Positions 5,969 through 53,152 of a stretch of DNA of 64,000 nucleotides are shown in pieces (positions within the stretch are counted from its first letter, which is position 1; each line of letters begins with the position of its first letter). The stretch comes from Candidatus Algichlamydia australiensis (GTDB lineage: Bacteria; Chlamydiota; Chlamydiia; Chlamydiales; JAJFMI01), in the NCBI GenBank assembly GCA_033977065.1, contig JAXCHI010000002.1:160001-224000 (forward strand), given 5' to 3'. The notes under the pieces were generated by a model. The model was given only the letters and a program-made list of their open reading frames with translations. It was not told the origin of the DNA and made no database searches. The translations under genes and the position numbers were made by a program.

Positions 5969-5988
5969 TTTTCTGTTACAGAGTACTA
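5969..5988. repeat. Terminal remnant of fold-back family B
   Basis: ttttctgttacagagtacta matches the terminus of element 18563-18725 and shares its TA with element A1. Confidence 0.75.
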
Positions 5989-6149
5989 GATAGTGTCGTC
6001 AAAAGGCTATAATCAGATTATTTTTCATGTTTGCAGCTTATTTTTGTGCGGAAAATGAAGCTGAATTTGTAAATTCCGCTTCATTTGAGCACAAAAATGG
6101 AGCCCAAACATGAAAAATAAGATGGTTGTATGCTTTTGACGACGCTATC
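5989..6149. mobile_element. Fold-back MITE-like element, family A copy 1 (161 bp)
   Basis: GATAGTGTCGTCAAAAG...CTTTTGACGACGCTATC, palindromic over its whole length, TA on both sides; reverse complement of 36512-36672 with one difference seen. Confidence 0.92.
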
Positions 6150-6188
6150 TAGACAACTCGGTCAAAATAATCCAAAAGCTAGATGAAA

Positions 6189-16213: not shown

Positions 16214-17365
16214 CTATTCGCTGTCGAGAACGTAGTAGGCAGGAAAGGCAAAATTATTGTTTGGTCTTTCCGAGACTTGGAGATTCACCCTTTTTCCAAT
16301 CAAATTCTCTAAATTGATGTGAGTGCTATAAACGCACCCAACTGGTATGCCATTCTCTTTCAAAATATGGCTCCCTGGTTTATTTCCAACAGGATCAGAA
16401 AAGAGCTCAAGTACACCTGAAATAAATTTTGCGTTGAGCTTCTGATCAGTGTAGTAGTCATCCATGGTTTTGGCATGGTGCATAGCAGACCAGGAAATAA
16501 AGATTGCTTCCTCTACTTTCTCCCAAACTTTTGTTCTTTCAGGACAGGCATTTTGCATAGATACATCGTTTTGCTTAGCAGAAGCGATTGCGTCATGAGA
16601 GAACTTATTGGAGAGGTTATCGTTCTTTGCTTTGAGATAAGCAATTTGACGATTTTGGTAGTCCTTTTCTAATTCATTTAAAAGGTTTTTTGCTTTTTCA
16701 ACAGCTCCGGGAAAGTCGACGTAGTCATTGATGACAGTAAGGTAAGTATTTTTGATGCGGGCGATATTAATCTCTTCAAAAGACTTGTGCATCTCAGACT
16801 GTGTGAGAAGAGCGGCTGAATCCATCAGCTGCTTCATCGTCGCGTAACGCTTATCTTGAACAGCCTTATACTCAGGACCGCCGGCATACTCTACAAATTC
16901 TTTTGCAATGTAGAAAACTGTATTTTCTGGGGGAGCAATTTCCAGCCACTTTCCATTGCGCTCGCAAATTTTTCCATCAACACGAGTGCCTGAATTGACA
17001 TGCCCTACAACAGGAGCTTCTAAAGAAGGCTCGAGGCGTACATTGACACGATTTCCTTCTACAATGTTATCGAGAACAAAGCTGCGAAAAATATAGGCTT
17101 TGCTGTTTGTTGGAGGAGCAACTTTGTAAAAGTCATTTTTTTCTCCTACAACAACAAAGAGATCGCCTTTGTTATATTCACCAACAATGGAGCTTTCAAG
17201 CTCGGGAGCTGTGCGCAAACGTACGTGGCTTCCTACAACTTTTCCTGAAAAACTTTTAAATTCTTTCTGCTGACGAGCAGGAAGGGTTTTGCTGGCGTTA
17301 TTCTCTTCTGCTTTGGCAGCTGTTAGAGAGAAAAGCGCGCACCCAACAAAGACATACTTAAACAT
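16214..17365 (-). CDS. Exported SH3b-domain protein (chlamydial CT017-like)
   Basis: Signal peptide, two SH3b-like repeats (VRLRTAP, VNVRLEPSLEAPVV), C-terminal RPNNNFAFPAYYV. Confidence 0.8.
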   Translation of the reverse strand: MFKYVFVGCALFSLTAAKAEENNASKTLPARQQKEFKSFSGKVVGSHVRLRTAPELESSIVGEYNKGDLFVVVGEKNDFYKVAPPTNSKAYIFRSFVLDNIVEGNRVNVRLEPSLEAPVVGHVNSGTRVDGKICERNGKWLEIAPPENTVFYIAKEFVEYAGGPEYKAVQDKRYATMKQLMDSAALLTQSEMHKSFEEINIARIKNTYLTVINDYVDFPGAVEKAKNLLNELEKDYQNRQIAYLKAKNDNLSNKFSHDAIASAKQNDVSMQNACPERTKVWEKVEEAIFISWSAMHHAKTMDDYYTDQKLNAKFISGVLELFSDPVGNKPGSHILKENGIPVGCVYSTHINLENLIGKRVNLQVSERPNNNFAFPAYYVLDSE

Positions 17366-17481
17366 AGCCGCGACTCCTAAATGATCATTTACTCCAGAGT
17401 TTAGTTTTTTTCGCTTTTTGTTTCCATATGAAAATAATTCCTTTGTCGCTGTATCTTTAACACAGGATTTTTAAATTTAAA

Positions 17482-17645
17482 AAACCCGAGTTGCTACCCC
17501 CTTCCCCCTTTGGAGAGTGCCTTTTCGCGACCTACTTAACTTCAACTCTCAGAAATGTTTATTAAACATTCCCTTCGAGTTGAAATTAAGTATCCCATCA
17601 AAAATCCTTCTCTCCATAGGAGAAATTGGGTAGCAATTCGAGTTT
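17482..17645. mobile_element. Fold-back element, family E copy 1 (~164 bp)
   Basis: AAACCCGAGTTGCTACCC...GGGTAGCAATTCGAGTTT, central aatgttt/aaacatt; homolog at 26503-26667. Confidence 0.85.
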
Positions 17646-17794
17646 TAAAAAAAGAGAGGAGTATGGCTGGTCAAACTACTCTTATTCGGCATGAAGGCGG
17701 GACTCAAAATGGAGCTAAAGATGGCTCGCATGTTAGAAGCTAGAGTATTGATTGCATAGCCCCAAAAACACCTTACAGTGTAAAACTCAAGTTG

Positions 17795-18451
17795 TTAACC
17801 AATTTCTTCTAAGGCGAGATTCTTCTCATGAAAATGCATTGCGTGTGAACTCTCTTTACTCAGGCCCATTTCTTTATACGAGAATGAAGCTTCCAAATTA
17901 GGAAGTCTTTTATATCCTAAACTTTCCCAAAAAGTAGTTAGACTTTTGTATTCAGTAGGCATCCTTTTGTCAGATTTATCACGGAAAATTTCACATAAAA
18001 CAACTTTTTCAAATTTCTTTAGTTCTTTCAAGAATTTTTCAAAAGCCAAATACATTTTCTTTCCTGTGCCTTTATTTCTAAACTCCTTCAAAAGCATGAT
18101 TTCACCTAAATAGTAAACTTTATTCATTGGAAGGTTTTTTTTAAGGAACACCTCTTGGACTTCCTCCATCGATTCGCTTACCGGAATTCCGGTAACAGCA
18201 CCAATAACAGTCCCACCTTCAATTGCTAAAATAAATAAAGCATTTTGAGTTTCGGCGTAGATTTGAAGATACTTTTCTTCCCCATCATAACTTCCATCGT
18301 ATAGGTATGGCCACTCTTTAAAAACAACCATTCTAAGTCTAGCAAGCTCGCGTAAATATGGAAGTATCTCTTTTCCTTGTAAGCTAATAATTTCAATGTT
18401 TTTCTTGTAAGTCATATTAAAAATCGAAGCGAAGCAAAGCAAAAAGGTCAA
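17795..18451 (-). CDS. GNAT family acetyltransferase (start may be 18415)
   Basis: EWPYLYDG, YLGEIMLLKEFRNKGTG acetyl-CoA motif, FWESLGY. Confidence 0.88.
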   Translation of the reverse strand: MTFLLCFASIFNMTYKKNIEIISLQGKEILPYLRELARLRMVVFKEWPYLYDGSYDGEEKYLQIYAETQNALFILAIEGGTVIGAVTGIPVSESMEEVQEVFLKKNLPMNKVYYLGEIMLLKEFRNKGTGKKMYLAFEKFLKELKKFEKVVLCEIFRDKSDKRMPTEYKSLTTFWESLGYKRLPNLEASFSYKEMGLSKESSHAMHFHEKNLALEEIG

Positions 18452-18562
18452 CCCGCGGAAGTAAAAACTTTTTTCTGATGTAAGCTATTACCGATTGCTT
18501 GGGCATCTTGGTCTTTGCGAAGCGCATTCTTATCGAAAAATCTTCTTATCCATATGAGGCTA

Positions 18563-18725
18563 GTACTCTGTAACAGAAAATTTTAGCATTATTTTTACGT
18601 TAAAGCCTCGGGATTGAACTATCGAAAATCACCTCGTATTTGATTAATACTAGGTGACTTGCGATAGCCCAATCGCGAGAGCTTTCACGTTAAAAAGAAT
18701 AGCAAAATTTTCTGTTACAGAATAC
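18563..18725. mobile_element. Fold-back element, family B (163 bp)
   Basis: CTA-GTACTCTGTAACAGAAAATTT...AAATTTTCTGTTACAGAATAC-TAG; palindromic throughout. Confidence 0.88.
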
Positions 18726-18814
18726 TAGGTAATGGAAAAATAAATATCAAGTATAAAGAGATGAAAAGTTTGTACTCCATATTTTTAGAGATGTTGTTAC
18801 GGGGGGGGTGAGAG

Positions 18815-19516
18815 TTAGCTACTTAAAACAGCTCGGATGTGGTTGCAGTTTTTCTCCCCACAGGTGCAGCCTACTGGTGAACCCAAGTGCACACGATAGC
18901 GCTCTTCAAGGCTAAGAGGGTTTTGCACTTCGTAGGTCTGCTCACCCACTTTGGCGATTTTCCATTCTGAGAAGGTAAGTTCATCATCAGTGACAATTTC
19001 ACTGTCGCTTCCGTCAAACTCGGGATGAACCAGCTCTTTTTCTTTACCTTGCATAGCACGCGCGACCTGGCAGTAAAAGCAGTTACAATGTGGCTCTGCT
19101 TTTGGCATCGCCTCAGTCGCCTCAGAACCAAGCGCTTCGGTTATTTTAGCAATTCTTTCCAACATCTCTTGTGGAAGGTCAGGAGCACCGGATTGGCTTT
19201 GATTGTGCTCAAAGACATTGCCCATTCCTTCTAGCCCTTCAATACCAAACTTAAATGGCATGGCAAAAGCGACGTTGGAGTCGGGGCGCATCTCTGGTTT
19301 AGGCTTTTTAGGTTTTTCTGGTAGAGACTCAAGGTGTTCAGCGTGAGCGATAAAGATCTGCTCTAAGATATCTGTCTCTAGCTCGGGAAGTTCAATTGTT
19401 GCGCCACTCTGGAGAGTGATCAGCAATTTCCCTTCGTGAATGTGGAGCGCGCTGATATTTTTCCACGATGTGGAGATATAAGGGGGGATGCTAAGAATTT
19501 TTTTTGTGAACTTCAT
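18815..19516 (-). CDS. Chlamydia-specific CT016-like protein with C-terminal SWIM-like Zn motif
   Basis: ILSIPPYISTSWKNI N-terminus, EPHCNCFYCQ, CTCGEKNCNHIRAVL. Confidence 0.85.
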   Translation of the reverse strand: MKFTKKILSIPPYISTSWKNISALHIHEGKLLITLQSGATIELPELETDILEQIFIAHAEHLESLPEKPKKPKPEMRPDSNVAFAMPFKFGIEGLEGMGNVFEHNQSQSGAPDLPQEMLERIAKITEALGSEATEAMPKAEPHCNCFYCQVARAMQGKEKELVHPEFDGSDSEIVTDDELTFSEWKIAKVGEQTYEVQNPLSLEERYRVHLGSPVGCTCGEKNCNHIRAVLSS

Positions 19517-19580
19517 GAGACACCTGCCAGTTTGCTTATACCTAATATTACAATACTTGTGTCAATTTGGTCAAGAAAAA

Positions 19581-19607
19581 TTAGCACTCTAGGTTGCGGT
19601 CTGCTTG
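19581..19607. promoter_or_regulatory. CIRCE-like HrcA operator between the CT016-like gene and phoH
   Basis: TTAGCACTC-N9-GTCTGCTTG: perfect left arm, TAGCA-N15-TGCT spacing. Confidence 0.65.
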
Positions 19608-19798
19608 TTTTAAACTATTGATTATTACTACCCATTAATGTAAAACATAATTAGAAAGAATAAGGGGAGAGATTAATAATAATTATTTTAAATTACCTAA
19701 TCTCAGGAGATTAATAATAAATACCCCAATTTCCATTCAAAAATCCAATTGGATTATTCAAAAAAATTCTTTTTCTAGCGTCTTTATGTCGCTAAATG

Positions 19799-19920
19799 TA
19801 AGGCAAGTGCTGAACAGGTCACGATTTCCGAAAAAGCTTCGAAAATCGGTCGAAATTAATTTTTCGAACTCGCTAACTCTTATGAAGTTAGCTCTGTTCT
19901 CCAACATCAATTTTGCCTCA
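19799..19920. repeat. Diverged, right-truncated family D copy
   Basis: gaactcgctaactcttatgaagttagctctgttctccaa colinear with the D2 core. Confidence 0.8.
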
Positions 19921-19948
19921 ATAACCAAAATAACCAAGGAGGGACCTT

Positions 19949-20896
19949 ATGGCCCTAATATCCAATGATGTAATCATACCTCATAATAAATCCAACTCGT
20001 CCAAATCAAGGCGTACCGATCGCAGGCTTTCTAGGTCTGGTGAATCAAAACTCTATAAGGGACGCCGCACGATCAATGTTGCTAAAGAGGAGATCGACCT
20101 CTTTTATGCAAAGGCTGGCCTACAGGTTGAGGCAAATGATTTCTACCCAAATGAGTACTGTCTCCTCTCCTCTCCTGAAAACACATCTGCTCTAGCAAAG
20201 TATAATTCTAAAACCAAACTTTTAGAGCCACTTGTTCCATTAAAGCGCGATGTGTGGGGGATCAACCCTCTCAATGTTGAGCAGCGCTGCGCTATGGACC
20301 TGCTTCTGCGTGACGACATCAAACTGGTAACGTTTATTGGGAAAGCAGGAACAGGAAAGACCTTGATGGCTCTCGCTTGTGCCCTTCGAAAAGTTTTTGA
20401 TGAGGACTCTTTTCGCCGTATCTTTGTTTCACGACCGATCATGCCTCTTGGCAAAGATATCGGCTATCTTCCTGGAACTAAAGAGGAAAAGCTTGTTCAC
20501 TGGATGCAGCCGATCTTTGATAACCTCGATGTGCTTTGTGATTCAGGTGACAACTCAGGAGAGACAAAAAATTGGATCATGGAGTCGGGCAAAGTTGAAA
20601 TGGAGGCGATCACCTATGTTCGTGGTCGATCGCTCTCTAACGCCTTCATTATCATTGACGAAGCGCAAAATCTTACCCCCCACGAAATGAAAACAATCAT
20701 TTCGCGTGCGGGTCACAACACCAAGATTGTTCTCACAGGAGATCCTTGGCAGATTGACAACCCAAAGCTTGATCCGGAAAACAACGGCCTCACGTATGTG
20801 GTCGACCGCTTTAAAAAGCAGAAGATTTATGGCCATATGGTGCTGGAGAAGTCTGAGCGTTCTGAGCTTGCTGCTTTAGCTGCCGACCTTCTATAA
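19949..20896 (+). CDS. PhoH-like ATPase (PhoH2/CT015 type) lacking the N-terminal PIN domain
   Basis: GKAGTGKT, IGYLPG, RGRSL, DEAQN, TGDPWQID. Confidence 0.9.
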   Translation: MALISNDVIIPHNKSNSSKSRRTDRRLSRSGESKLYKGRRTINVAKEEIDLFYAKAGLQVEANDFYPNEYCLLSSPENTSALAKYNSKTKLLEPLVPLKRDVWGINPLNVEQRCAMDLLLRDDIKLVTFIGKAGTGKTLMALACALRKVFDEDSFRRIFVSRPIMPLGKDIGYLPGTKEEKLVHWMQPIFDNLDVLCDSGDNSGETKNWIMESGKVEMEAITYVRGRSLSNAFIIIDEAQNLTPHEMKTIISRAGHNTKIVLTGDPWQIDNPKLDPENNGLTYVVDRFKKQKIYGHMVLEKSERSELAALAADLL

Positions 20897-20905
20897 TTTG
20901 TTTTT

Positions 20906-21760
20906 ATGAAGCGTTACCATCAATTATCGCCTCCTCAAGAGGCGATTTTGGTTAAAAAAGGAACGGAGCGTCCCGGTTCGGGCAAGTTCAATGATTTTTC
21001 TGAGCCTGGCATCTACACCTGCGCGCAATGCGATGCGCCTCTCTATCTCTCTAAAGATAAATTCTCCTCCGGCTGTGGCTGGCCCAGCTTTGATGATGAA
21101 ATTCCAGATGCCGTCAACCGCTATCCCGACCCCGATGGGATGCGCACAGAAATTGTCTGCGCACGCTGCAATGGCCATCTTGGTCATGTCTTTACAGGGG
21201 AAAATCTCACCGATACAAACACACGCCACTGTGTTAATTCTATTTCTCTTTCCTTTGAGCCTGCTTTAACTGAAGAGAGATATGAGCGCGCGCTTTTTGC
21301 TGGCGGCTGTTTTTGGGGAGTGGAGCATCTTTTTGCAAAAGAGAAAGGTGTAATCAAAGCGACCTCAGGCTACTGTGGCGGTCACCTTGTCAACCCCACC
21401 TACAAAGAAGTTTGTGGCGGTGGCACAGAACATGCAGAAGTTGTAGAAGTTCTTTTTGATCCGCAAAAAACCGATTATGAAACTCTTACCAAATTCTTCT
21501 TTGAAATTCACGATCCGACACAAGGCCCGCGCCAAGGTCCCGATATTGGTCGGCAGTATCGCTCTGCCATTTTTTACTTCACTGAAGAGCAGAAACAGAT
21601 CGCGGAAAAACTTGTTGCAAAGCTTAAGGCGAAAGGATTTGAGGTGACAACAGAAATTGTTCCTGCAAGTCATTTTTATAAAGCAGAAGAGCATCACCAA
21701 CACTACTACGAAAAAACAGGAAAAAATCCCTATTGCCACATACGTATATCTAGGTTTTAG
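20906..21760 (+). CDS. msrAB: Fused methionine sulfoxide reductase MsrB-MsrA
   Basis: GCGWPSF, HLGHVF, RHCVNS (MsrB), then [16 protein letters not shown] (MsrA). Confidence 0.95.
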
Positions 21761-22907
21761 TTCCTGCTAGAAAGCTTGTCGTCCAGGCATTCTGAAAGTT
21801 AAAGCCACCTGTAACGCCATCAATATCTAAAATTTCGCCGGCGAAGTGGAGACCAGGGCAGATTTTGCTCTCCATCGTTTTGAAGTTGACCTCGCGGAGG
21901 GGGATGCCGCCGCAGGTCACAAATTCTTCTTTATTCGTTGTTTTGCCCTCGACTTGGTAGGTGTCGGCTTGGAGCTTTTTGGTGAGTTGCCCGATTTCTT
22001 GGTTAGAGAGAGTGGCGATTTTCTTTTCTCCAATGGGGCCAATGAGAGTTTTCCAGAGGGATTTGGGAAGTAGGTTTTCTGAAGAAAGAAGTTTTTTGGG
22101 ATTGGCATTTTTGATTTGTTCTGGAGAGAAGTTGGGAAGCCAGTTGATGGTGAGGGGAGTGCAATACTTTTTTTCTGCGAGGTGGCGTGCGGCAAAGGCG
22201 GAGAGTTTGAGTGCGGCAGGACCGCTAAAGCCAAAGTGGGTAATGAGCAGGGGACCGGTTTGTGTAAAGTGGTCGAGGGTTAATTTTGCAGGAACGGAGA
22301 TACCAGAGAGCTCTTTAAGTGGTGAGTTGGGGACATTAAAGGTGAAGAGGGAGGGAACGGGATCAATGATCGTATGACCGAGAGATTTGGCAAAGTTGTG
22401 GCCTTGGAATGAGCTACCGGTAGCGAGTAAAAGTTTTTTGGTGTGAAGGTTATCAAGCTGAAAGCCATTTTCGGTTTTTGTGATGCTTTGGATGCGCGTG
22501 CGTGTGCGGATTTCAACCCCGAGTGTTTCGGCTTCTTTCAGGAGGCAGTTAATGATGGTTTCGGAAGAGTTTGTTACGGGAAACATGCGGCCATCTTTTT
22601 CAGTTTTCAGTTTGACACCGCGAGAGGAGAACCAGTCGATGGTCTCTTGTGGGCCAAATTTGTGAAAAGGACCAAGAAGCTCTTTAGAGCCGCGTGGATA
22701 ATTTTGAGTGAGTTCGCGTGGATCAAAGCAGGAGTGAGTAACATTGCAGCGCCCCCCGCCAGAGATACGCACTTTTGACAGAAGTTGCGCGGTTTTTTCT
22801 ACGACAAGAACGCGAGCGAATTTTGCTGCATGACAAGCGGCAAAAATCCCGGCGGCACCACCACCTAAGATAATAAGGTCATACTCTTCTTTTTGCGCGA
22901 TAGCCAT
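21750..22907 (-). CDS. HI0933/BaiN-family flavoprotein
   Basis: [35 protein letters not shown]. Confidence 0.93.
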
Positions 22908-24258
22908 AGAATAAAAGGACAGGGAGTAGGAGCGAGATAAGCCCTATTCCAATCATGGTAGAGTAGGTTTTAATGGATTCTATATGAATTTCTTCAGGCG
23001 GGAAGAAGCCGACAAAGATGGTGAGGGCGCAGGCGAAAAGGCCAAGCAGACAGGTGGTCCAGATGCCAAGATTATTCCCAGGAATTTTAAATACTGCAGG
23101 GCGATCGTGGTGCTTGTAGTGAAGAATGAGACCAGAGAGAAACATGAGGATGTACATCAACATGTAGAGGCAGGTGCTAAGTGCAGTTAAAAACCAGTAG
23201 AAACTATTGACGCTAGGAACAAGGAGGAAGAGTAGGCAGAAAAGACTTACAAATACTCCCTGCGCAATCATAATGCGAGAGGGAACACCATAACGATTTT
23301 TTTTAGAAAAGAAAGGGGGCATAAAGCCAAATTCAGAGGCGTGAAGCAGGCCTTTGGCGGGGGAAATCAGCCAATTAATAATGCTGCCAACGGTGCCGAT
23401 GACGACAAGGAAAGTGAGCGGCATGAGGCACCACTCCATGTGAAAGACGGAGAAAAAGTTGGCAAAGACTTGCATCACACCTGATACAAGGTTGATTTCG
23501 GAATCGGGAAGGACAAAAGCGATGGCAAGAGAGCCCAAAATCATGGTTGTCAAGATAAAGGCACAGGAGATGAAAATCGCTTTGGGAAAGTTGCGCTGTG
23601 GGCTATCAATCTCTTTAATATGCACGCCAGAGAGTTCCATTCCGAGGTAGGAGGCCATAATGGCAATCAGCGAGACCCAGCTTGTAGAAGACTTAAATGA
23701 GGGCAAAATGCTCCCAAAGGTAATCGAAATTTGAAGAGGTTCTCCAGAAACGGCCCAAAAAATTCCTAAGAATATGAGGGCAAACATCGGAAAGACAGTT
23801 CCAATAAGGACGCAGATACTATTGATTTTTGCAGAGATACGTAGGCCGAAGAGATTGACAAAGGTGAGACCCCAAAACACGGAGAGGACAACAGCTGCGA
23901 TATAACCTTTATGTTCGGCAAGTGCGGGATTAACGAGGTAGGCGAGGGTTCCCGCAATGAAAGAGAGAATTGTCGGATACCAGACCATGGTATTGATCCA
24001 TTGGAGCCAGATAGCAAGCATCCCAGTCTTTTCGCCAAAGGCCATCTGCACCCAGTGGTAGACCCCGCCTTTTTCGGGAAAAGTTGCGGAGAGTTCAGCT
24101 GCAATTAGAGAGGTAGGAATTAAAAATATTAATGCCGCAAAAATAAAAAAGAAAATTAACTCACTGCCAAAAAGAGCAGCAGCAGGAAGATTGCGAATGC
24201 TATCAATAGCAGCAATGACTAAAAGGACAAGGGAAAATAGAGAAATTTTCTTACTCAT
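22879..24258 (-). CDS. APC-family amino acid permease (GadC/XasA-like)
   Basis: DSIRNLP, AELSATFPEKGGVYHWV, about 12 TM helices. Confidence 0.92.
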   Translation of the reverse strand: MSKKISLFSLVLLVIAAIDSIRNLPAAALFGSELIFFFIFAALIFLIPTSLIAAELSATFPEKGGVYHWVQMAFGEKTGMLAIWLQWINTMVWYPTILSFIAGTLAYLVNPALAEHKGYIAAVVLSVFWGLTFVNLFGLRISAKINSICVLIGTVFPMFALIFLGIFWAVSGEPLQISITFGSILPSFKSSTSWVSLIAIMASYLGMELSGVHIKEIDSPQRNFPKAIFISCAFILTTMILGSLAIAFVLPDSEINLVSGVMQVFANFFSVFHMEWCLMPLTFLVVIGTVGSIINWLISPAKGLLHASEFGFMPPFFSKKNRYGVPSRIMIAQGVFVSLFCLLFLLVPSVNSFYWFLTALSTCLYMLMYILMFLSGLILHYKHHDRPAVFKIPGNNLGIWTTCLLGLFACALTIFVGFFPPEEIHIESIKTYSTMIGIGLISLLLPVLLFYGYRAKRRV

Positions 24259-24283
24259 CCTTCGAGTATAATGGGTTTAAGAA

Positions 24284-24670
24284 TTATCTGCGACCGCGGC
24301 GCCCTCTGTGCTCTCCTCTTCTTTCACGCTCTCTTCGGTAATATCTACGGCTGCGGCGACGGTGATAGTGTCTTCCTCCGTAGTAACGTCTGTCATAGTA
24401 GTGGTAGTGCCACCGTCTATAGCCATAATGGTAGTAGCGATGGTAGTAAAGATTTCTTCTCCGCCATGCGTAGAAGTCGGGCCTTGTAGAAAAATAAACC
24501 CCGTAATAGACGCCAGGTCCAACCCAGATTACTTCTGAATCGTCATAGCCATCTGGGTCATCGTAGTCATCATACCCACCAGAATGGTACTCTACATAGC
24601 CGCCTTGCGCAGAGAGTTTTCCTCCTAAAACAATCATGCAAACAAAAACTAAGAAGTGGTATCTATTCAC
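24284..24670 (-). CDS. Exported Tyr/His/Arg-rich protein, paralog 1
   Basis: Signal peptide, WVGPGVYYGVYF...WRR motif, Arg/Gly tail. Confidence 0.8.
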   Translation of the reverse strand: MNRYHFLVFVCMIVLGGKLSAQGGYVEYHSGGYDDYDDPDGYDDSEVIWVGPGVYYGVYFSTRPDFYAWRRRNLYYHRYYHYGYRRWHYHYYDRRYYGGRHYHRRRSRRYYRRERERRGEHRGRRGRR

Positions 24671-24676
24671 TCGCTT

Positions 24677-25114
24677 TTACCTGCGCCCGCCGCCTCTACG
24701 GCCTCCGCCGCGACGTCCACCACCTCCGCCATGGTAATGGTAGTGTTGGTGCACATCTGTTTTGTGGCCTCCAGCTGGTTCAGCGCGACGCTCTCCAGCT
24801 CTATTATCGCGCTCGCGGTTGCGATCTCGATTTCGATCATAGTCACGATCTCGGTCCCAATCTCGGTCATAGTGGTAGTGGTAATGGTAGAAGAGGTGGT
24901 TGCGTCTCCAACCGATAAAGGCTGCTTCGGTTGCAAACCAGAGACCGTAATAGTAGCCCGGACCGACCCAAACGACATTATCTGATTGATCAGAGTCGTT
25001 TTGACTATCTGACTTGTCATTACTACTATCTTGATTATTTTGATCGTTTTGAGCGCACATGGTGCAACAGACCATTGTTATGGAAGCAAGAAAAAAAGAA
25101 AGATATTTATTCAT
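24677..25114 (-). CDS. Exported Tyr/His/Arg-rich protein, paralog 2
   Basis: Signal peptide, WVGPGYYYGLWF...WRR motif, RD repeats, GGGRR tail. Confidence 0.8.
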   Translation of the reverse strand: MNKYLSFFLASITMVCCTMCAQNDQNNQDSSNDKSDSQNDSDQSDNVVWVGPGYYYGLWFATEAAFIGWRRNHLFYHYHYHYDRDWDRDRDYDRNRDRNRERDNRAGERRAEPAGGHKTDVHQHYHYHGGGGGRRGGGRRGGGRR

Positions 25115-25169
25115 TTTAAAGAAAATTAAGCTTTTCTTTTTAATAACAAATAAAAATTATTTGGTAAAA

Positions 25170-26396
25170 TTACTTTCTTCTTTTTCTTTTTGCGGGTTTT
25201 CTTTTATTTTGAAAACGGGGACGAGGCTTTGGACGAGATGAAGTTGAAGGTTTTTTTCTAGATGGCTCAAATCCCACTCTTTCAACGACATCCATCTTGT
25301 GCCCTGTGAATTCTTGAATTTTTTTCACTAAGTGCGCATCCCGATGGGAAGCAAACGAGAGAGCTGTACCTTTTGCACCCGCTCGACCTGTTCTTCCAAT
25401 CCGATGAACGTAATCTTCGATGTTACGCGGAAGATCAAAGTTGATCACGTGGGTGATCGATTGTACATCGATACCGCGCGCTGCAACATCAGTTGCAACT
25501 AAAATTTTAATCTTTCCATTGCGCAGCTGAGAGATCGTGCGTGTGCGCTGTCTTTGGCTCATATCGCCATGGAGTGCCGCTGTAGAAAACCCTTTGTCAT
25601 AAAGCTCCTCAACTAACTGATCGGCATGCCGTTTAGTAGAAGTAAAGACGATCGCGTTATCAATAGGATCTTCATTTAGGATATGGTCGAGCAGACGGTT
25701 TTTATGCCCAATGTTATCGACATAGTGAAGATTTTGTTGGATGTTCTCGTGCTTTGCTTTTTTAGCGTGGACAACAACATCTACAGGATTCCGCATCAGC
25801 TCGTTAGAAAATTTCATAACACTACCTTCAAGGGTGGCGGAAAAGAGGAGTGTTTGACGCGATTTTGGAGTTGCCGAAGCGATTTGATTGACGGGTTCAA
25901 CAAAACCCATATCGAGCATGCGATCCGCTTCATCAAGAATAAGCATCTCAACTTTTGAAAGGTTAACCTTGCGCTGCGTGATGAGATCGATCAAGCGTCC
26001 TGGGGTGGCAATCAGCAAATCACATGGCCGTGCGAGCTTTCGCAGCTGTTTGTGATAGGGAACACCGCCATAAATACAAGCAACTTTCATCTTCTGCAAA
26101 TATTTGCCGTACTTTTCAACCTGAGTAGAGATTTGAATTGCTAACTCGCGAGTTGGAGCCAAAATCAGTACACGAGGAGCCTTGCTTGGTTTTTCTCGAG
26201 GAGTGAGAATTTTGTTAATAGCAGGGAGAAGAAACGCAGCAGTCTTACCAGTCCCTGTTTGGGCAGAAGCGCGAAGGTCGAGACCTTCAGAGACTTTCGT
26301 TATAGTTTTAAATTGAACTTCAGTAGGTTCCAAATACCCGGCCTCTTCAAGAGCTTTTAGAAGTTTGGGGTGTAGATTAAATTTTTCAAAAGACAC
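25170..26396 (-). CDS. DEAD-box RNA helicase (RhlE-like)
   Basis: AQTGTGKT, PTRELA, DEADRM, SAT, HRIGRTGRAG. Confidence 0.96.
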   Translation of the reverse strand: MSFEKFNLHPKLLKALEEAGYLEPTEVQFKTITKVSEGLDLRASAQTGTGKTAAFLLPAINKILTPREKPSKAPRVLILAPTRELAIQISTQVEKYGKYLQKMKVACIYGGVPYHKQLRKLARPCDLLIATPGRLIDLITQRKVNLSKVEMLILDEADRMLDMGFVEPVNQIASATPKSRQTLLFSATLEGSVMKFSNELMRNPVDVVVHAKKAKHENIQQNLHYVDNIGHKNRLLDHILNEDPIDNAIVFTSTKRHADQLVEELYDKGFSTAALHGDMSQRQRTRTISQLRNGKIKILVATDVAARGIDVQSITHVINFDLPRNIEDYVHRIGRTGRAGAKGTALSFASHRDAHLVKKIQEFTGHKMDVVERVGFEPSRKKPSTSSRPKPRPRFQNKRKPAKRKRRK

Positions 26397-26502
26397 GAGA
26401 TATTCCTTGGTGATTTTTTGGATCTATCTGAATAGGCTTGTTGTGCTATTTTCTACCAATTTTGCGATATTTTCCCGAATAACTTTAATCAAGTTAGTCT
26501 TG

Positions 26503-26667
26503 AAAACTTAAGTTGCTGCCCCCCTTTCCCCTCTGAAGAGATCCTTTTTGCGACCTGTTTCGTTTCAAATTTCAGAAATGTTTAACAAACATTCCTTCAA
26601 TTTGAAACGAAACATCTCATCAAAAATCCCTCTCTCTATAGAAGAAACTGGGTAGTAACTTAAGTTT
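26503..26667. mobile_element. Fold-back element, family E copy 2 (~165 bp)
   Basis: AAAACTTAAGTTGCTGCCC...GGGTAGTAACTTAAGTTTT; colinear with 17482-17645. Confidence 0.85.
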
Positions 26668-26766
26668 TTGAAAAGATCCTAAACTCTTTGAAAACCTTTA
26701 AAACAGCTTTATTAGGACTGACCCTTAATATATCTTAACAGATAGTGTGTAATAAAAAGAAACTTT

Positions 26767-27510
26767 TTATTCAGAATATCTAAAAAGATATTGATCGAAG
26801 AGATCTGGATAATGCTCTTTGACCTTTTTATTCATCTGATAAGCGACCTCTTTCGAGCGGCTTTTCATATGATAATCAGTTGACTTTCCCCTTGAATGGG
26901 CGCGGCCAGGATAAAGTTTAAAAATATTTCTTGATTCTTCTTTCGCCCTAAGAATTAATGCTGGCAAATCTTTAACATTTAATCCCAATTCATTGTGGAG
27001 TTTTTGAAGCTCGGGGAGGGGGTCAAAAAGAAAGTCTTCATAGTAAAGAATAAGTTTGTCACCTTCCCACTCATCAAAAAAATGGATGTTTTCAAAATAA
27101 GAGTTCATGTTTTTAGGAAATTTTGAAAATTCTTGGGATATAGAACCTTTCAACATCCCGTTTATAATTTCATGGAAAAAACACTCTTTGTAGTCCCTAA
27201 GTAGCAAAAGGAGAAAACTTTTCTCATCTTTTGGAACTTTTTGAGAAAAATGTGTTCGATAATATTTTGGTGCTCTTGGGTTGTTTGTTAAGTGAAAGAG
27301 GTGATTGAATTTATCGTAGGCCAGAACCTTGTCCTTACGAATAATCGTTACGTCTGTATTCAGAAGTCTTGCAACATAAAGATTCATCAGATGCGATCCT
27401 GAACCGCTATAACAGAGCTGATAAAGAGCGTTATAAGGTTGCTCCTGTGAATAGGCTTTTGCTCCTACAAAAAGAATCGAAACCAGGAGTATGATAAATT
27501 TGTTTTTCAT
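26767..27510 (-). CDS. Sulfotransferase-fold protein with signal peptide
   Basis: YSGSGSH (5'-PSB-like), LLRDYKE (3'-PB-like), YYEDF. Confidence 0.6.
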   Translation of the reverse strand: MKNKFIILLVSILFVGAKAYSQEQPYNALYQLCYSGSGSHLMNLYVARLLNTDVTIIRKDKVLAYDKFNHLFHLTNNPRAPKYYRTHFSQKVPKDEKSFLLLLLRDYKECFFHEIINGMLKGSISQEFSKFPKNMNSYFENIHFFDEWEGDKLILYYEDFLFDPLPELQKLHNELGLNVKDLPALILRAKEESRNIFKLYPGRAHSRGKSTDYHMKSRSKEVAYQMNKKVKEHYPDLFDQYLFRYSE

Positions 27511-27587
27511 TGTGCCAAGTATTGCAATCACATTTAGATCTTGTCAAGAAACAAAAAAGCACGTAGAAATAACGTTTTGAGGTAGTT

Positions 27588-36281: not shown

Positions 36282-36707
36282 GAAGCAGGGGAATCTCAGT
36301 AAATACGGTAAGTTTAGGCGGGGTGTGGACAGAGAAGCTTGCAGAAAAGATGGAAAAAGAGTCGCAAGACTCTGGAGAATCTGTAGAAAAGCTGCGCGTA
36401 AATCGCGTGCAAAATATTCCTCTAAAAAAATATGCCGAGCTATCTGAAGTGGCAAGTGTTGTAGAGCAAATGTTAGGGGATTTGACAAGCCATCTTACTA
36501 GGCAAAATTTAGATAGCGTCGTCAAAAGCATACAACCATCTTATTTTTCATGTTTGGGCTCCATTTTTGTGCTCAAATGAAGCGGAATTTACAAATTCAG
36601 CTTCAATTTCCGCACAAAAATAAGCTGCAAACATGAAAAATAATCTGATTATAGCCTTTTGACGACACTATCTAGTTCTAGATGGAGGGTTTACCTCAGC
36701 TTATTAG
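36242..36707 (+). pseudogene. SDR oxidoreductase C-terminal fragment interrupted by element A2
   Basis: RGISVNTVSLG...IPLKK...HLTRQNL, then element, then VLDGGFTSAY*. Confidence 0.85.
36512..36672. mobile_element. Fold-back element, family A copy 2 (161 bp) with TA duplication
   Basis: Removing the element and one TA restores caa aat tta gtt cta gat gga (QNLVLDG). Confidence 0.93.
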
Positions 36708-44270: not shown

Positions 44271-45563
44271 TTAATTTACAAGTTCTAGATATTTGATTCG
44301 TTTTTGGAATATTTTTTTGGTATGACTTGTTTGGCAGTAATCGACTGGTTGTTTGCCACTTTTGTCTTTTGCCGTTAGATCTTCTAAGTCACCAGTTAAA
44401 AGTAAAACTTTTTCGATATAACTTGAATTATCAGAAGGGCCTTTTTTTCGCATAGCGACATAGTGAAAAATCGATTGACCAGATTTAGTTTTAATTTTAA
44501 CAAGGCTAGTAGATTTCTTAAGAAGAGTTTCAACCAATTTCAGTGTGCAGTATTTTACAGCTAGATGTAACGCTGTTTCACCCTTGTTATTTTGGATATT
44601 TAATAGGGGATCAGTGGCTAGTAATAGTTTGCACAATGTAGTCATGCCGCCGAAGGTTGCTCTATGAAGGGGTGTATTTCCAGTTTTTGGGTCTTGACTA
44701 TTTGGGTTCGCGCCTTTTTTAAGCAAGTACTTTACCCCTTCTTGCCATCTAGCAGTTACAGCCTTTCCTAAAAGCTCGTCTAAAGTTTTTTCTTTGTGGG
44801 ATTCGTTTGTTCGTTCAATGTAGTCTTTAAGTTTTGAGATGTTTTTTTCGCTTACATTGAAAGTTTGTTTTTTTGAGGCGTAGTCAGCGGGCAGCTTGCC
44901 TGATTTGTCTCTAACAAGAACAGAGTAAGGATTCATTTTTATAATTTTTTTTACGACTGTTAGTGATCCATAAACTGCGGCAAGGTGTAGTGCTGATTTT
45001 CCTTCGAGATTTACAGGTAAAGAGAGTGATGCATTCTTCTCTATTAATAGAAAAAACATCTCTTTATACGTAGCAAATTTTGAGCAATTGATAGCTGAAG
45101 AACCTGTCTCCTTGTCAATCCAGTTAGGATCAGCTCCATTTTCTAACAATAGTTTTGCGCCTTTCTTCCAATTTTCTTTAATTGCGCTATGTAGTGCAAT
45201 TCCTAGGTAATTGCTACTCTTTGCCAATTCATTAATTTTGGTGGCTAATAGTTCGCTATCTTTAGCGCAAATAGCTCTATAAACTTCAGGAAAAGGTTCT
45301 TTTAATTTTTTCGAATATTGTGAACTGACTTTTCTAGATTTAGAGGGAGGGCGATCTTCATCTTCTGAAGGCTTAGGACAAATTAAATTTTGAATTTCAG
45401 AAGGATCAAGGCTAAAAAATGGATTATCTAAAATATCATCTGAAATTCTTTCTGAAAATGTTCTTGTTCCCAGAATAGATGGGGGTGGAAGTTCTTCTTG
45501 GAGATCGAACTCGATTGGTTTAAAAGGTTCATGTGCAATTGAACCAATGGGTGTAATATTCAT
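44271..45563 (-). CDS. Ankyrin-repeat protein, paralog 1
   Basis: GKSALHLAA, GNTPLHRA, GETALHLAV; disordered Ser/Pro/acidic N-terminus. Confidence 0.92.
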   Translation of the reverse strand: MNITPIGSIAHEPFKPIEFDLQEELPPPSILGTRTFSERISDDILDNPFFSLDPSEIQNLICPKPSEDEDRPPSKSRKVSSQYSKKLKEPFPEVYRAICAKDSELLATKINELAKSSNYLGIALHSAIKENWKKGAKLLLENGADPNWIDKETGSSAINCSKFATYKEMFFLLIEKNASLSLPVNLEGKSALHLAAVYGSLTVVKKIIKMNPYSVLVRDKSGKLPADYASKKQTFNVSEKNISKLKDYIERTNESHKEKTLDELLGKAVTARWQEGVKYLLKKGANPNSQDPKTGNTPLHRATFGGMTTLCKLLLATDPLLNIQNNKGETALHLAVKYCTLKLVETLLKKSTSLVKIKTKSGQSIFHYVAMRKKGPSDNSSYIEKVLLLTGDLEDLTAKDKSGKQPVDYCQTSHTKKIFQKRIKYLELVN

Positions 45564-45660
45564 GTCATTTATTATATAATCAAATAACAATAAAAGCAAT
45601 TAAATTTTTAATTATTTAATTTTTTATAAATAAATGTAAAAATTATTTTTTGAAAAATTA

Positions 45661-45727
45661 CCACTCTCAAAATCGTTTTTTACAGACAAAAACGCCGCAG
45701 AGCCACTCATCTTTTTTTGCTTGCTCT
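45661..45727. repeat. Left part of family F plus flank
   Basis: ttttacagacaaaaacgccgcagagccactcatcttttt near-identical to 46819-46857. Confidence 0.85.
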
Positions 45728-45880
45728 AGCTCTCTCTATCAGCAAAGACAATCATTCCTTCAGACATGAAGTCGGCAAGTTTAGGATGGAAGGGATCTAG
45801 CTGCTTCCTAAATTCAGGATGTTCTCACCTATTTGAAATTTTTTAAATCTGTATTTGATGAAACAAGGCCTAGTACTCTT

Positions 45881-46558
45881 TCACCTTTGTTTCTTCGAAA
45901 CATAGTCAACGGGTAGCTTACCGTATATGTCTCTCTCAAAGAGGGACAAAGGAGCTTTTTCTATAATTTTTTTAACGACTTCATGTGAGTTAGAGGCTGC
46001 TGCAAGGTGTAGTGCTGATTGTTTTTGGCGATTTAGGGGTAAAAAGAGGGATGCATTCCACTTTAGTAATAGAAAAAACATTTCTTTATGTGTAGCAAAT
46101 TTTGAGCAATTGATAGCTGAAGAGCCTGTCTCCGGATCTCTCCAGTTAGGATCAGCTCCCTTTTTTAACAGCAGTGCTGTGCCGCTCTTCCAATTTTTTT
46201 TAATTGCAGAATGCAGTGCAACTTCTAGGTAGTTACTATTATTTACTAATTCATCAATTCCGGTGGCTAATAGTTTGACATTTTTAGTGCAAATAGCTCT
46301 ATAAACTCTAGGAGCAGGTTTTTGTAATTTTTTCCAATATTGTGAATTGGTTTTTCTAGATTTGGAGGGAGGGCTATTTTCGTCTTCTGAAAGTATAAGA
46401 TAAGTTAAATCTTCAATCTCAGAAGAATCAAAGTTAGAAAGTAGACTATCTACAGTTCTTTGTGAAAATGTTCTTGACCCTAGAATAGATTGGGGCGAGG
46501 CTCCTCCTTGGAGATCGGGCCTTATTGTTTTAAGGGAATTAGTTGGCAAAATATTCAT
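45881..46558 (-). CDS. Ankyrin-repeat protein, paralog 2 (C-terminally truncated, possibly a pseudogene)
   Basis: Colinear with the N-half of paralog 1 (ETGSSAINCSKFAT identical); stops at YVSKKQR. Confidence 0.8.
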   Translation of the reverse strand: MNILPTNSLKTIRPDLQGGASPQSILGSRTFSQRTVDSLLSNFDSSEIEDLTYLILSEDENSPPSKSRKTNSQYWKKLQKPAPRVYRAICTKNVKLLATGIDELVNNSNYLEVALHSAIKKNWKSGTALLLKKGADPNWRDPETGSSAINCSKFATHKEMFFLLLKWNASLFLPLNRQKQSALHLAAASNSHEVVKKIIEKAPLSLFERDIYGKLPVDYVSKKQR

Positions 46559-46815
46559 GTCATTTATTGTATCATTAAATAATAATAAAATCAATCAAAT
46601 GGTGTTAATGTTTTAATTTTCGGTGTTTTTAATAAAAAAAATATTTAAAAAATTTTTTTAAAATTAAAAATTCATAGGGTTGCTCATTTTTTTTGACTAA
46701 TGTTCCTTGTCAAACCTCAAAAGATTTGAATTTGTCGCATTAGCAATAAAACTTAAGCATCTGTGCGGGCTTTTATTATGTAAAATAATTTTTGGAGGTT
46801 CCCACCCCCAAAGAC

Positions 46816-46947
46816 AAATTTTACAGACAAAAACGCCGCACAGCCACTCATCTTTTTCCGCTCGCTCCTTGGTAAACCCTCGGGTTTACCTGCGTCGCGA
46901 TCGAAAAAATCTAAGCACCTGTGCGGCGTTTTTGTAATGTAAAATTT
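46816..46947. repeat. Fold-back element, family F (132 bp), just downstream of tmRNA
   Basis: aaattttacagacaaaaacgccgcacag...ctgtgcggcgtttttgtaatgtaaaattt, central ggtaaacc/ggtttacc. Confidence 0.85.
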
Positions 46948-46952
46948 ATCTT

Positions 46953-47351
46953 TGGAGGTGGAGAGAATCGAACTCTCGTCCTCAGCTAGTTTCCTAGGTT
47001 TGACTACATGCTTATTGCCTTAAGTATTTAAGAACTCACCCTTATGTAAGACACCCCATGTAGAGCGAGCTCTATCCCATATGTGTCTTGAGAAAATGCC
47101 CTATGGAATACAAGCACTCCTCATACCAAGATAAATGACGATCGTACACGAACTCTCGGTCCGATTCTGTGTGGATCGCGCTTAGGATGTCGGGTTAGGA
47201 CGCTAAGCTATCGCTCAAGCTTAAGCAGCTAGAGCAAAATCGCAATTTTCTTCGCCAATTACAATGCTAGTCGGATGATTTAGGAGGCCAACCGACGTCC
47301 TCCGCATGCCAAAAAATAGGTAAGCTACCAAGTCGAAACCTGTTCACCCCC
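46953..47351 (-). ncRNA. ssrA: tmRNA
   Basis: 5' GGGGGTGAACAGGTTTCGAC, 3' GAGAGTTCGATTCTCTCCACCTCCA with G3.U pair; tag frame 47256-47221 reads GEENCDFALAA*; CCA not encoded. Confidence 0.95.
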
Positions 47352-52989: not shown

Positions 52990-53152
52990 TGGACATACTG
53001 AATAATTTAGACTTTTCGATAAGGGACCAAAAATTGGTCCAAATCGGTTTTTCTAACTCACTAACTCTTATGGAGTTAGCTTCGTTCTCCAAAACCAATT
53101 TGTTCTCATTTTTTCATCTTTTCTCGAAAAGAGCAGTTATTCAGATGTTTTT
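52990..53152. mobile_element. Fold-back element, family D copy 2 (163 bp)
   Basis: Reverse-complement homolog of 10970-11133; TA at 52988-89 and 53153-54, the latter inside the upstream gene's stop codon. Confidence 0.88.

Follow-up and report, generated by a model that had tools for sequence, protein, structure and literature searches.

The window analysed here is a stretch of 64,000 nucleotides from Candidatus Algichlamydia australiensis (C2:160001-224000 of a 1.80-Mb assembly of seven contigs, with 42% G+C and a completeness of 93.4%); the genome holding the window is referred to as G000 and that of a sister species as G001. It carries two full-length copies, E1 and E2, of a repeat called family E, which is a non-autonomous, non-coding hairpin MITE (miniature transposable element with inverted repeats) whose whole length of ∼165 nt forms an imperfect foldback. 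The data presented below support the conclusion that the two arms of this foldback have changed in step, beyond chance and beyond shared descent.

E1 and E2 in the window

The two elements are separated by ∼9 kb of unrelated genes inside the span 17482-26667 treated in an earlier note on this DNA. TAAAA is found on both sides of E1 (17478-17482 and 17646-17650), the boundary of which can be moved by one base either way because its ends are A/T-rich, and TTGAA on both sides of E2 (26500-26504 and 26668-26672). Each copy folds as one long imperfect hairpin rod. In E1, TACTTAACTTCAACTC (17533-17548) is complementary to its partner (17577-17592) save at one position, and in E2, TGTTTCGTTTCAAATT (26556-26571) has a perfect complement at 26599-26614; the outer arms pair with two mismatches out of ten in E1 and one out of ten in E2. 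Predicted folding energies were -58.9 kcal/mol (z -9.5) for E1 and -59.7 (z -11.3) for E2 on the plus strand, and -86.5 kcal/mol (z -13.6) and -70.1 (z -10.1), respectively, on the minus strand, and none of the dinucleotide shuffles folded as well as E1 or E2 on either strand.

E1 and E2 can be aligned end to end with a mean column identity of 86%. Upon comparison of the pair using a MAFFT alignment and an RNAalifold structure, 35 of the 165 aligned columns differed, 26 of them in paired columns. Seven pairs had changed on both sides, all seven being Watson-Crick in both copies, and 12 pairs had changed on one side only. Random scattering of the 26 differences hit both sides of 2.7 pairs on average, and seven or more doubly hit pairs arose in 0.28% of 10000 trials, a figure that does not yet require complementarity. 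The earlier note had described the inner and outer arms of both copies as paired and several substitutions between E1 and E2 as mirrored on the opposite arm; the quoted arms were indeed found in place and paired, with the mismatches given above, and seven pairs have changed on both arms.

E1 is touched by a single open reading frame (ORF), which comprises 62 aa and extends beyond the element. A promoter scan returned no promoter-like site in or beside E1 and E2, and E1 contains one short site resembling a terminator, where 0.3 would be expected. Among sequencing runs, window 17200-27000 was listed for two DNA runs of one study, labelled dinoflagellate metagenome, and for no RNA run. At the gathering score, Rfam gave nothing for family E in the window, where the transfer-messenger RNA (tmRNA) gene was the sole match, and three family E loci compared with Rfam yielded only sub-threshold matches to hairpins resembling microRNA precursors. 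The weak right-end match listed in Table 1 overlaps the 3' end of the acetyltransferase ORF and may be a decayed solo end or a chance similarity.

Table 1. Coordinates of family E elements, neighbouring genes and other repeats (window positions unless a contig is given).
Feature	Position	Strand	Remark
E1, full-length family E element	17483-17645	+	C-rich 'plus form' on window + strand
Inner rod and apex of E1	17533-17592	+	around conserved apical hairpin GAAATGTTTATTAAACATTCC
E2, full-length family E element	26505-26667	+	other subfamily than E1
Inner rod and apex of E2	26556-26614	+	
Weak match to right 38 nt of family E	17782-17819	-	E = 0.003
ORF, 383 aa, SH3_3 domains	16214-17365	-	E1 117 nt upstream of its start
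ORF, 218 aa, GNAT acetyltransferase	17795-18451	-	E1 148 nt downstream of its stop
ORF, 408 aa, DEAD-box helicase	25170-26396	-	E2 108 nt upstream of its start
ORF, 254 aa, without Pfam match	26767-27531	-	E2 98 nt downstream of its stop
Family E minis in G000	C2:145223-145280, C3:154860-154916, C4:152670-152726, C4:334608-334665, C4:411845-411900		
Family F2	5975-6164	+	
Family F2	36509-36679	-	
D4 repeat	19801-19929, 52996-53107		non-palindromic, ∼118 nt, 21 copies
tmRNA gene	46952-47351	-	137.5 bits
Diverged repeats	44864-46185, 45438-46533, 45658-46867		beside tmRNA gene

Family E and its relatives

Two rounds of nhmmer, with full length defined as at least 130 of the ∼168 model positions, detected 42 non-overlapping hits of family E on four contigs of G000. 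Thirteen of these are full-length (∼165 nt, ranging from 159 to 169 nt) and without a transposase gene, the others being truncated copies, copies with internal deletions and five 'minis' of ∼57 nt; most copies are intergenic. The elements end in terminal inverted repeats (TIRs) of ∼18 nt, in which AACTCAAGTTGCTACCCC pairs with GGGTAGCAACTTGAGTT. AT-rich direct repeats of ∼5 bp, variable in sequence between copies (ATTGT, ACAAG, TATAA, TTTTA twice, TAAAA twice, TTGAA, TTCGA and GTTTA/GTTCA) flank all ten copies with consensus ends, the three divergent full copies standing outside this count; five duplications were read unadjusted, four after a one-base boundary shift and one after a shift plus one mismatch, the shifts being needed because the ends are A/T-rich. 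Both G001 copies adjoin DNA whose G000 counterpart carries no element, in an alignment too diverged to define the element ends. Furthermore, a member of family F2 (C3:646091-646256) interrupts the copy at C3:646012-646340 in its apex. G000 contains 37 full copies of F2, which is likewise a hairpin MITE (∼168 nt); this family resembles family E in size and fold, but its copies are nearly identical, as after a recent burst, and therefore offer no covariation to read. A further family E copy, C3:2177-2341, lies in the loop of a flanking palindrome (AGAGAGTCTCTT-ACAAG-...-ACAAG-AGACTCTCT) and was thus inserted into a pre-existing hairpin, possibly a terminator.

All five minis share the junction GAGAGAC/TGGGTAG, which falls between GGAGAGAC and GGAGAAAC, near-repeats of 8 nt that lie at the inner rod's base, and at least two of them carry 5-bp flanking repeats of their own. 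They may represent either a transposing mini subfamily or the outcome of recurrent slippage deletion between the two near-repeats. Other classifications of the full element were considered and rejected: an IS200/IS605-type element or a repetitive extragenic palindrome with its associated tyrosine transposase (REP/RAYT), as G000 has no PF01797 (Y1/HUH) match and duplications are present; a Tn3-type element, for which there was no match; a hammerhead-like motif in UGAUGAG...CGAAA, which lacks a three-way junction and has U at the first core position; and a site for integration host factor in CATCAAAAATCC, which does not fit the 3' half of the consensus.

In a BLAST-level search of 41 related genomes, family E was found in G000 and G001 only. 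A covariance model built from the minus-strand alignment was needed in order to reach beyond these two and gave full-length matches in 13 of the 150 scored genomes of the order, one genome not being scored. These relatives share sequence blocks as well as shape, namely the ends (..GATTGC/AGTTGC..), GATTTTTGATGAGAT, the apical GAAGGAAT..ATTTC and AGATCGCAAAAAG. A scan of a wider genome collection with the right end, own genome excluded, yielded a single match at each of 22 loci in unrelated phyla, which we estimate to be about the chance expectation.

The relative G086 also carries the end motif as inverted pairs spaced ∼1137 bp apart. At least four such loci align as one element of ∼1.16 kb with the TIR GACCCAGATTGCTACCCTGA and 3-bp duplications, encoding a 293-aa transposase of the IS982 family, which scores 171 bits with the model NF033520 (cut-off 130). 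This insertion sequence (IS) and the MITEs of G086 have no more than their terminal 17-19 nt, which are identical, in common, and the conserved MITE interior therefore does not come from the G086 IS. The ends of family E in G000 match the end of the G086 IS at 13 of 18 positions. No homologue of its transposase was found in G000 (93.4% complete) or in G001, the sole NF033520 match in G000 being a 50-bit fragment; judged by its ends, family E is thus probably a MITE of the IS982 type whose parent is missing from this assembly. Duplication length is variable in the IS982 family, and both the 5 bp of family E and the 3 bp of the G086 IS fall inside its range. The IS982-type elements of G086 (C1:41050-42500) and of G073 each show a long subterminal palindrome just inside one end, which in G086 reads ACTCGGCTTAAGGGC...GCCCTTAAGCCGAG.

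Other transposases of G000 were rejected as parents, their ends being unrelated. They comprise an rve remnant, an IS903-like IS with 9-bp target duplications and the TIR GGCCTTGTTGC, and a 1568-bp IS with the TIR TAGTCGACCC. The IS903-like element belongs to the IS5 family, measures 1110 bp and is present in two copies that are 99.8% identical (C2:397645-398754 and C3:388891-390000), with an interrupted transposase frame. The 1568-bp IS (C1:79605-81172) is bounded by a perfect 17-nt TIR (TAGTCGACCCTGAAAAA) and carries a 416-aa ORF with a weak DDE_Tnp_1 match.

Covariation across the family and what may keep the arms paired

Covariation was assessed in 13 sequences, 11 from G000 and two from G001, the alignments excluding C2:109667 and C4:18821, the full copies that have diverged most. 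With the plus-strand structure, double changes occurred in 15 of 60 pairs (39 cells), counts that were matched by none of 500 shuffles, and controls in which the partner was slid by one to three columns had two to six double-changed pairs. With the minus-strand structure, 17 of 64 pairs (43 cells) were double-changed, again matched by none of 500 shuffles. As repeat copies are related by descent, a tree-aware count was also made, in which changes were placed by parsimony on a FastTree tree and the null was obtained by re-simulating columns independently on the same tree. This count revealed 18 double changes on the same branch, 15 of them ending Watson-Crick, against null means of 7.4 and 2.7, respectively, and the observed values were matched in none of 2000 simulations. 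Five to six of these double changes fall on a single deep branch, the one that parts the E1-like from the E2-like subfamily, and there are therefore fewer independent events than cells. The remaining ones are distributed over at least five further branches, some of them terminal (11-166 in E2; 8-169, 18-159, 60-117 and 65-112 in C3_679037), and 62-115 in C2_296037 is another private double change. Covariation was much stronger in a superfamily alignment, with double changes in 62 of 64 pairs and 89.8% of cells paired, versus 57.6% in shuffles; this alignment was fitted to the structure, and palindromes aligned by structure always show 'covariation'. The earlier note had named a lack of covariation in a larger set of copies as the result that would speak against it; in the 13 sequences covariation held against both the shuffles and the simulations.

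The best joint explanation, in which we place about even confidence, is that family E is a MITE with IS982-type ends whose pairing persists mainly through constraint on a folded single strand. The family would have spread by a cut-or-copy transposition that duplicates ∼5 bp of AT-rich target, and would now be without a recognisable transposase of its own in this genome. Pairing would have been kept mainly since lineages that spread or survived had to fold as a single strand, and some of the double changes may have been supplied by template switching at quasipalindromes. The strand that folds is in all likelihood the one complementary to the window + strand, with G-U (or G-T) where the + strand has C-A. 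The data establish the family with its ends, target duplications and spread, as well as the covariation and the difference in folding between the strands; we infer from them that the fold is under selection, be it as RNA or as single-stranded DNA, and that it may have a role in the spread or survival of the element.

Several observations are in line with this explanation. The minus form folds better in all 13 copies with RNA parameters (-75.4 versus -55.9 kcal/mol) and DNA parameters (-38.3 versus -32.2) alike, and four positions that are G-U on the minus strand and C-A on the plus strand are fixed in 11-12 of the 13 sequences. The same strand also folds better in all 24 loci of other genomes, although this asymmetry is partly circular because the covariance model picks the best-scoring strand. 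The two arms differ in their conserved sequences, GATTTTTGATGAGAT versus AGATCGCAAAAAG, throughout a set of 18 non-redundant rows that represents 11 genomes, and thus have not been homogenised; likewise, an internal loop rich in C (ACCC facing TCCC) and an asymmetric, bulged module (UUUUUG-A-UGA-GA / AG-UCG-CAAAAA) are kept across genera. Such persistent asymmetry appears to favour a constraint on the folded strand over plain arm-to-arm copying as the sole force. The copying between arms during mobilisation that the earlier note had offered as one cause found no direct support, and the conserved asymmetries argue against a sole role for it.

Other results weigh against the explanation by folded-strand constraint or restrict it. 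Sporadic changes on the minus strand turned Watson-Crick pairs into G-U in 29 cases and into A-C in 17, a non-significant difference, and changes per column were only modestly fewer in paired than in unpaired columns (0.98 versus 1.43), the latter including gappy ones. On terminal branches 55 changes weakened or broke a pair (26 G-U, 15 A-C and 14 other mismatches) versus seven compensated ones, the corresponding numbers on internal branches being 11 and eight. Private changes are thus mostly uncompensated, so that resident copies seem to decay and the constraint would act on lineages. The ∼57-nt minis at five loci are devoid of the inner rod, and if they were transposed as minis, the rod would be dispensable for movement. 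The 13 full copies lie in either orientation to flanking genes, which implies no single transcribed strand. The statement of the earlier note that pairing is actively maintained consequently holds for the lineage, where matched changes exceed chance and shared descent, and not for each resident copy. Similarly, the comparison of G-U with A-C mismatches, which it had proposed in order to tell RNA from DNA, indicated the folding strand through the four fixed G-U positions and the better fold of the minus form, but cannot separate RNA from single-stranded DNA because G-T is the mildest mismatch in DNA too.

Matched changes could also arise by template switching, in which a polymerase briefly copies one arm from the other and erases or mirrors changes in one event, without selection. 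This mechanism is established in E. coli, where it perfects imperfect inverted repeats and is strand-biased (PMC7202029), and it has also been put forward as an origin of compensatory changes in RNA stems (bioRxiv 10.1101/2021.04.15.439925). Adjacent compensated pairs between E1 and E2 (11/12, 60/61 and 72/74) and transversion-type double changes (AT to TA, AT to CG and TA to GC) are consistent with it, and the link between orientation and replication described below would fit a replication-coupled process. We nevertheless consider it rather unlikely as the main cause: efficient arm copying should have erased the four C-A mismatches of the + strand, the ACCC/TCCC loop and the bulged module, and their persistence, unrepaired in nearly all copies and across genera, therefore counts against it. 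In addition, two adjacent pairs among 7 of 60 are, by our estimate, only about twice the chance level, and private changes are predominantly uncompensated.

The covariation might instead be merely apparent, if each subfamily had formed as a fresh foldback of a different IS end, with arms matched by construction and unmaintained thereafter. The five to six double changes on the deep branch separating the subfamilies would agree with such an origin, as would the 'covariation' displayed by any structure-aligned set of palindromes. All subfamilies, however, including those of other genera, share the fixed wobbles, internal loop, asymmetric module and apical hairpin, and departures from symmetry held in common indicate descent from one already asymmetric ancestor; with double changes on at least five other branches, terminal ones included, we regard independent foldbacks as improbable. 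It is more improbable still that the copies are no transposon but genes for small structured RNAs, or cis-regulatory RNA elements, retained locus by locus for a host function. Covarying stems, some conserved unpaired blocks, a strand-specific fold and the intergenic position of most copies could be expected of such RNAs, but target duplications, different sites in the sister species, a nested insertion, truncated and deleted copies and IS982-type ends could not. The absence of an Rfam match at the gathering score, with sub-threshold hairpin matches only, the absence of a promoter-like site in or beside E1 and E2, and the mixed orientation to neighbouring genes likewise speak against RNA genes.

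Orientation, known systems and implications

GC skew in G000 is strong and coherent, being positive throughout C2 and C4 and switching on C3 from negative to positive after the first ∼360 kb. In 12 of 12 full copies with readable skew, the C-rich plus form is carried by the G-rich strand (two-sided binomial p = 0.0005), the 13th being located on a 20.7-kb contig without skew. Partial or interrupted copies of family E were co-oriented in four cases and anti-oriented in four (Fisher p = 0.014 versus intact copies), and family F2 was divided 19:18 (Fisher p = 0.002 versus 12:0). With skew read in 20-kb windows, the same rule was observed in G086 (5/6), G073 (3/3), G148 (1/1) and G088 (1/1) and failed in G118 (0/1) and G103 (1/5); because of these two exceptions it is not universal. 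As partial copies occur in both orientations, biased survival seems likelier than biased insertion, and as F2 folds more strongly on both strands without bias, hairpin strength alone offers no explanation.

A general purging of strong hairpins on the lagging-strand template is weakened as a cause by the unbiased, stronger-folding F2, which is, however, young. A role as FtsK-orienting polar sequence (KOPS) was rejected as well: the G-rich strand of family E holds GGGAAGGG, but the truly skewed oligomers (AGGGGAG and kin) are absent from it. These G-rich oligomers of G000 are in their own right distributed extremely unequally between leading and lagging strand (AGGGGAG 257 versus 25, AGGGGAGT 87:3 and GAGGGGAG 82:4); they are dispersed with random flanks, mostly in genes of either direction, at ∼1 per 6.4 kb on C2, and look like a polar motif of the KOPS or Chi type. 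Copies of the D4 repeat were co-oriented with the skew in 16 cases and not in five.

A further reading, which we put forward with considerable doubt, brings fold and orientation together: the ∼165-nt rod would be a strand-specific folded module (RNA, or single-stranded DNA at the replication fork) on IS982-type ends, conserved across several chlamydial families, with its asymmetric internal loop as a putative binding site, and replication orientation would decide which copies survive intact.

Elements of the ERIC (IRU) type are 100-250 bp long, mostly intergenic and bounded by terminal inverted repeats, with very stable predicted folds, as in family E. The same features are found in RUP, Nezha, Chunjie and Correia/NEMIS, and some whole-length hairpin MITEs act at the RNA level when co-transcribed (PMC3184786). 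They differ from family E in their ends, duplications and hosts, and for most of them the part of that source drawn on here does not count covariation across diverged copies (PMC3184786). The closest described analogue is bcr1 of the Bacillus cereus group, which is likewise ∼155 bp, non-coding and dispersed at non-conserved sites with 5-bp direct repeats (Delihas 2011, PMC3184786), and in which compensatory changes also keep the fold while its stability varies between copies (PMC3184786). Matched arm changes of this kind have thus been described before in a few comparable bacterial elements. Unlike bcr1, family E forms one long rod with ends matching an IS982-type element of a relative; judged by Rfam alone, the two have no sequence relationship. 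MITECca01 of Cardinium resembles family E in being non-autonomous, in having inverted repeats that match an IS of the IS982 family and in residing in a host-restricted intracellular bacterium (PMC9769881). It is ∼240 bp long and coexists with intact parent copies, whereas no parent of family E was found in its own genome, and the consulted part of that report describes no whole-length foldback, covariation or orientation bias for it (PMC9769881).

Our literature search returned no description of MITEs in chlamydiae, on the basis of search listings that do not amount to proof of absence. The genome paper, in the part drawn on, mentions 11 transposases and does not use the term MITE (PMC11317633), and the main texts of a review and a survey of prokaryotic MITEs, both from 2024, contain none of the terms 'Chlamyd', 'IS982' and 'orientation'.

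A functional RNA is commonly regarded as proven once compensatory changes are seen; in family E such changes occur in a palindrome of mobile DNA, in which replication template switching can mimic them. With its diverged copies, its presence in 13 of 150 genomes and its fixed asymmetries, family E is well suited for an experimental separation of the two causes, and the asymmetric fold conserved across the order as well as the replication-linked orientation are worth following up. For the chlamydiae themselves, MITEs bear on annotation, gene disruption and the assembly of symbiont genomes. If the orientation bias of intact copies relative to replication is real, it would point to an orientation-dependent stability of hairpin DNA in a natural genome, and if the rod is indeed a strand-specific module, family E would be a mobile structured element whose persistence depends on the direction of replication.

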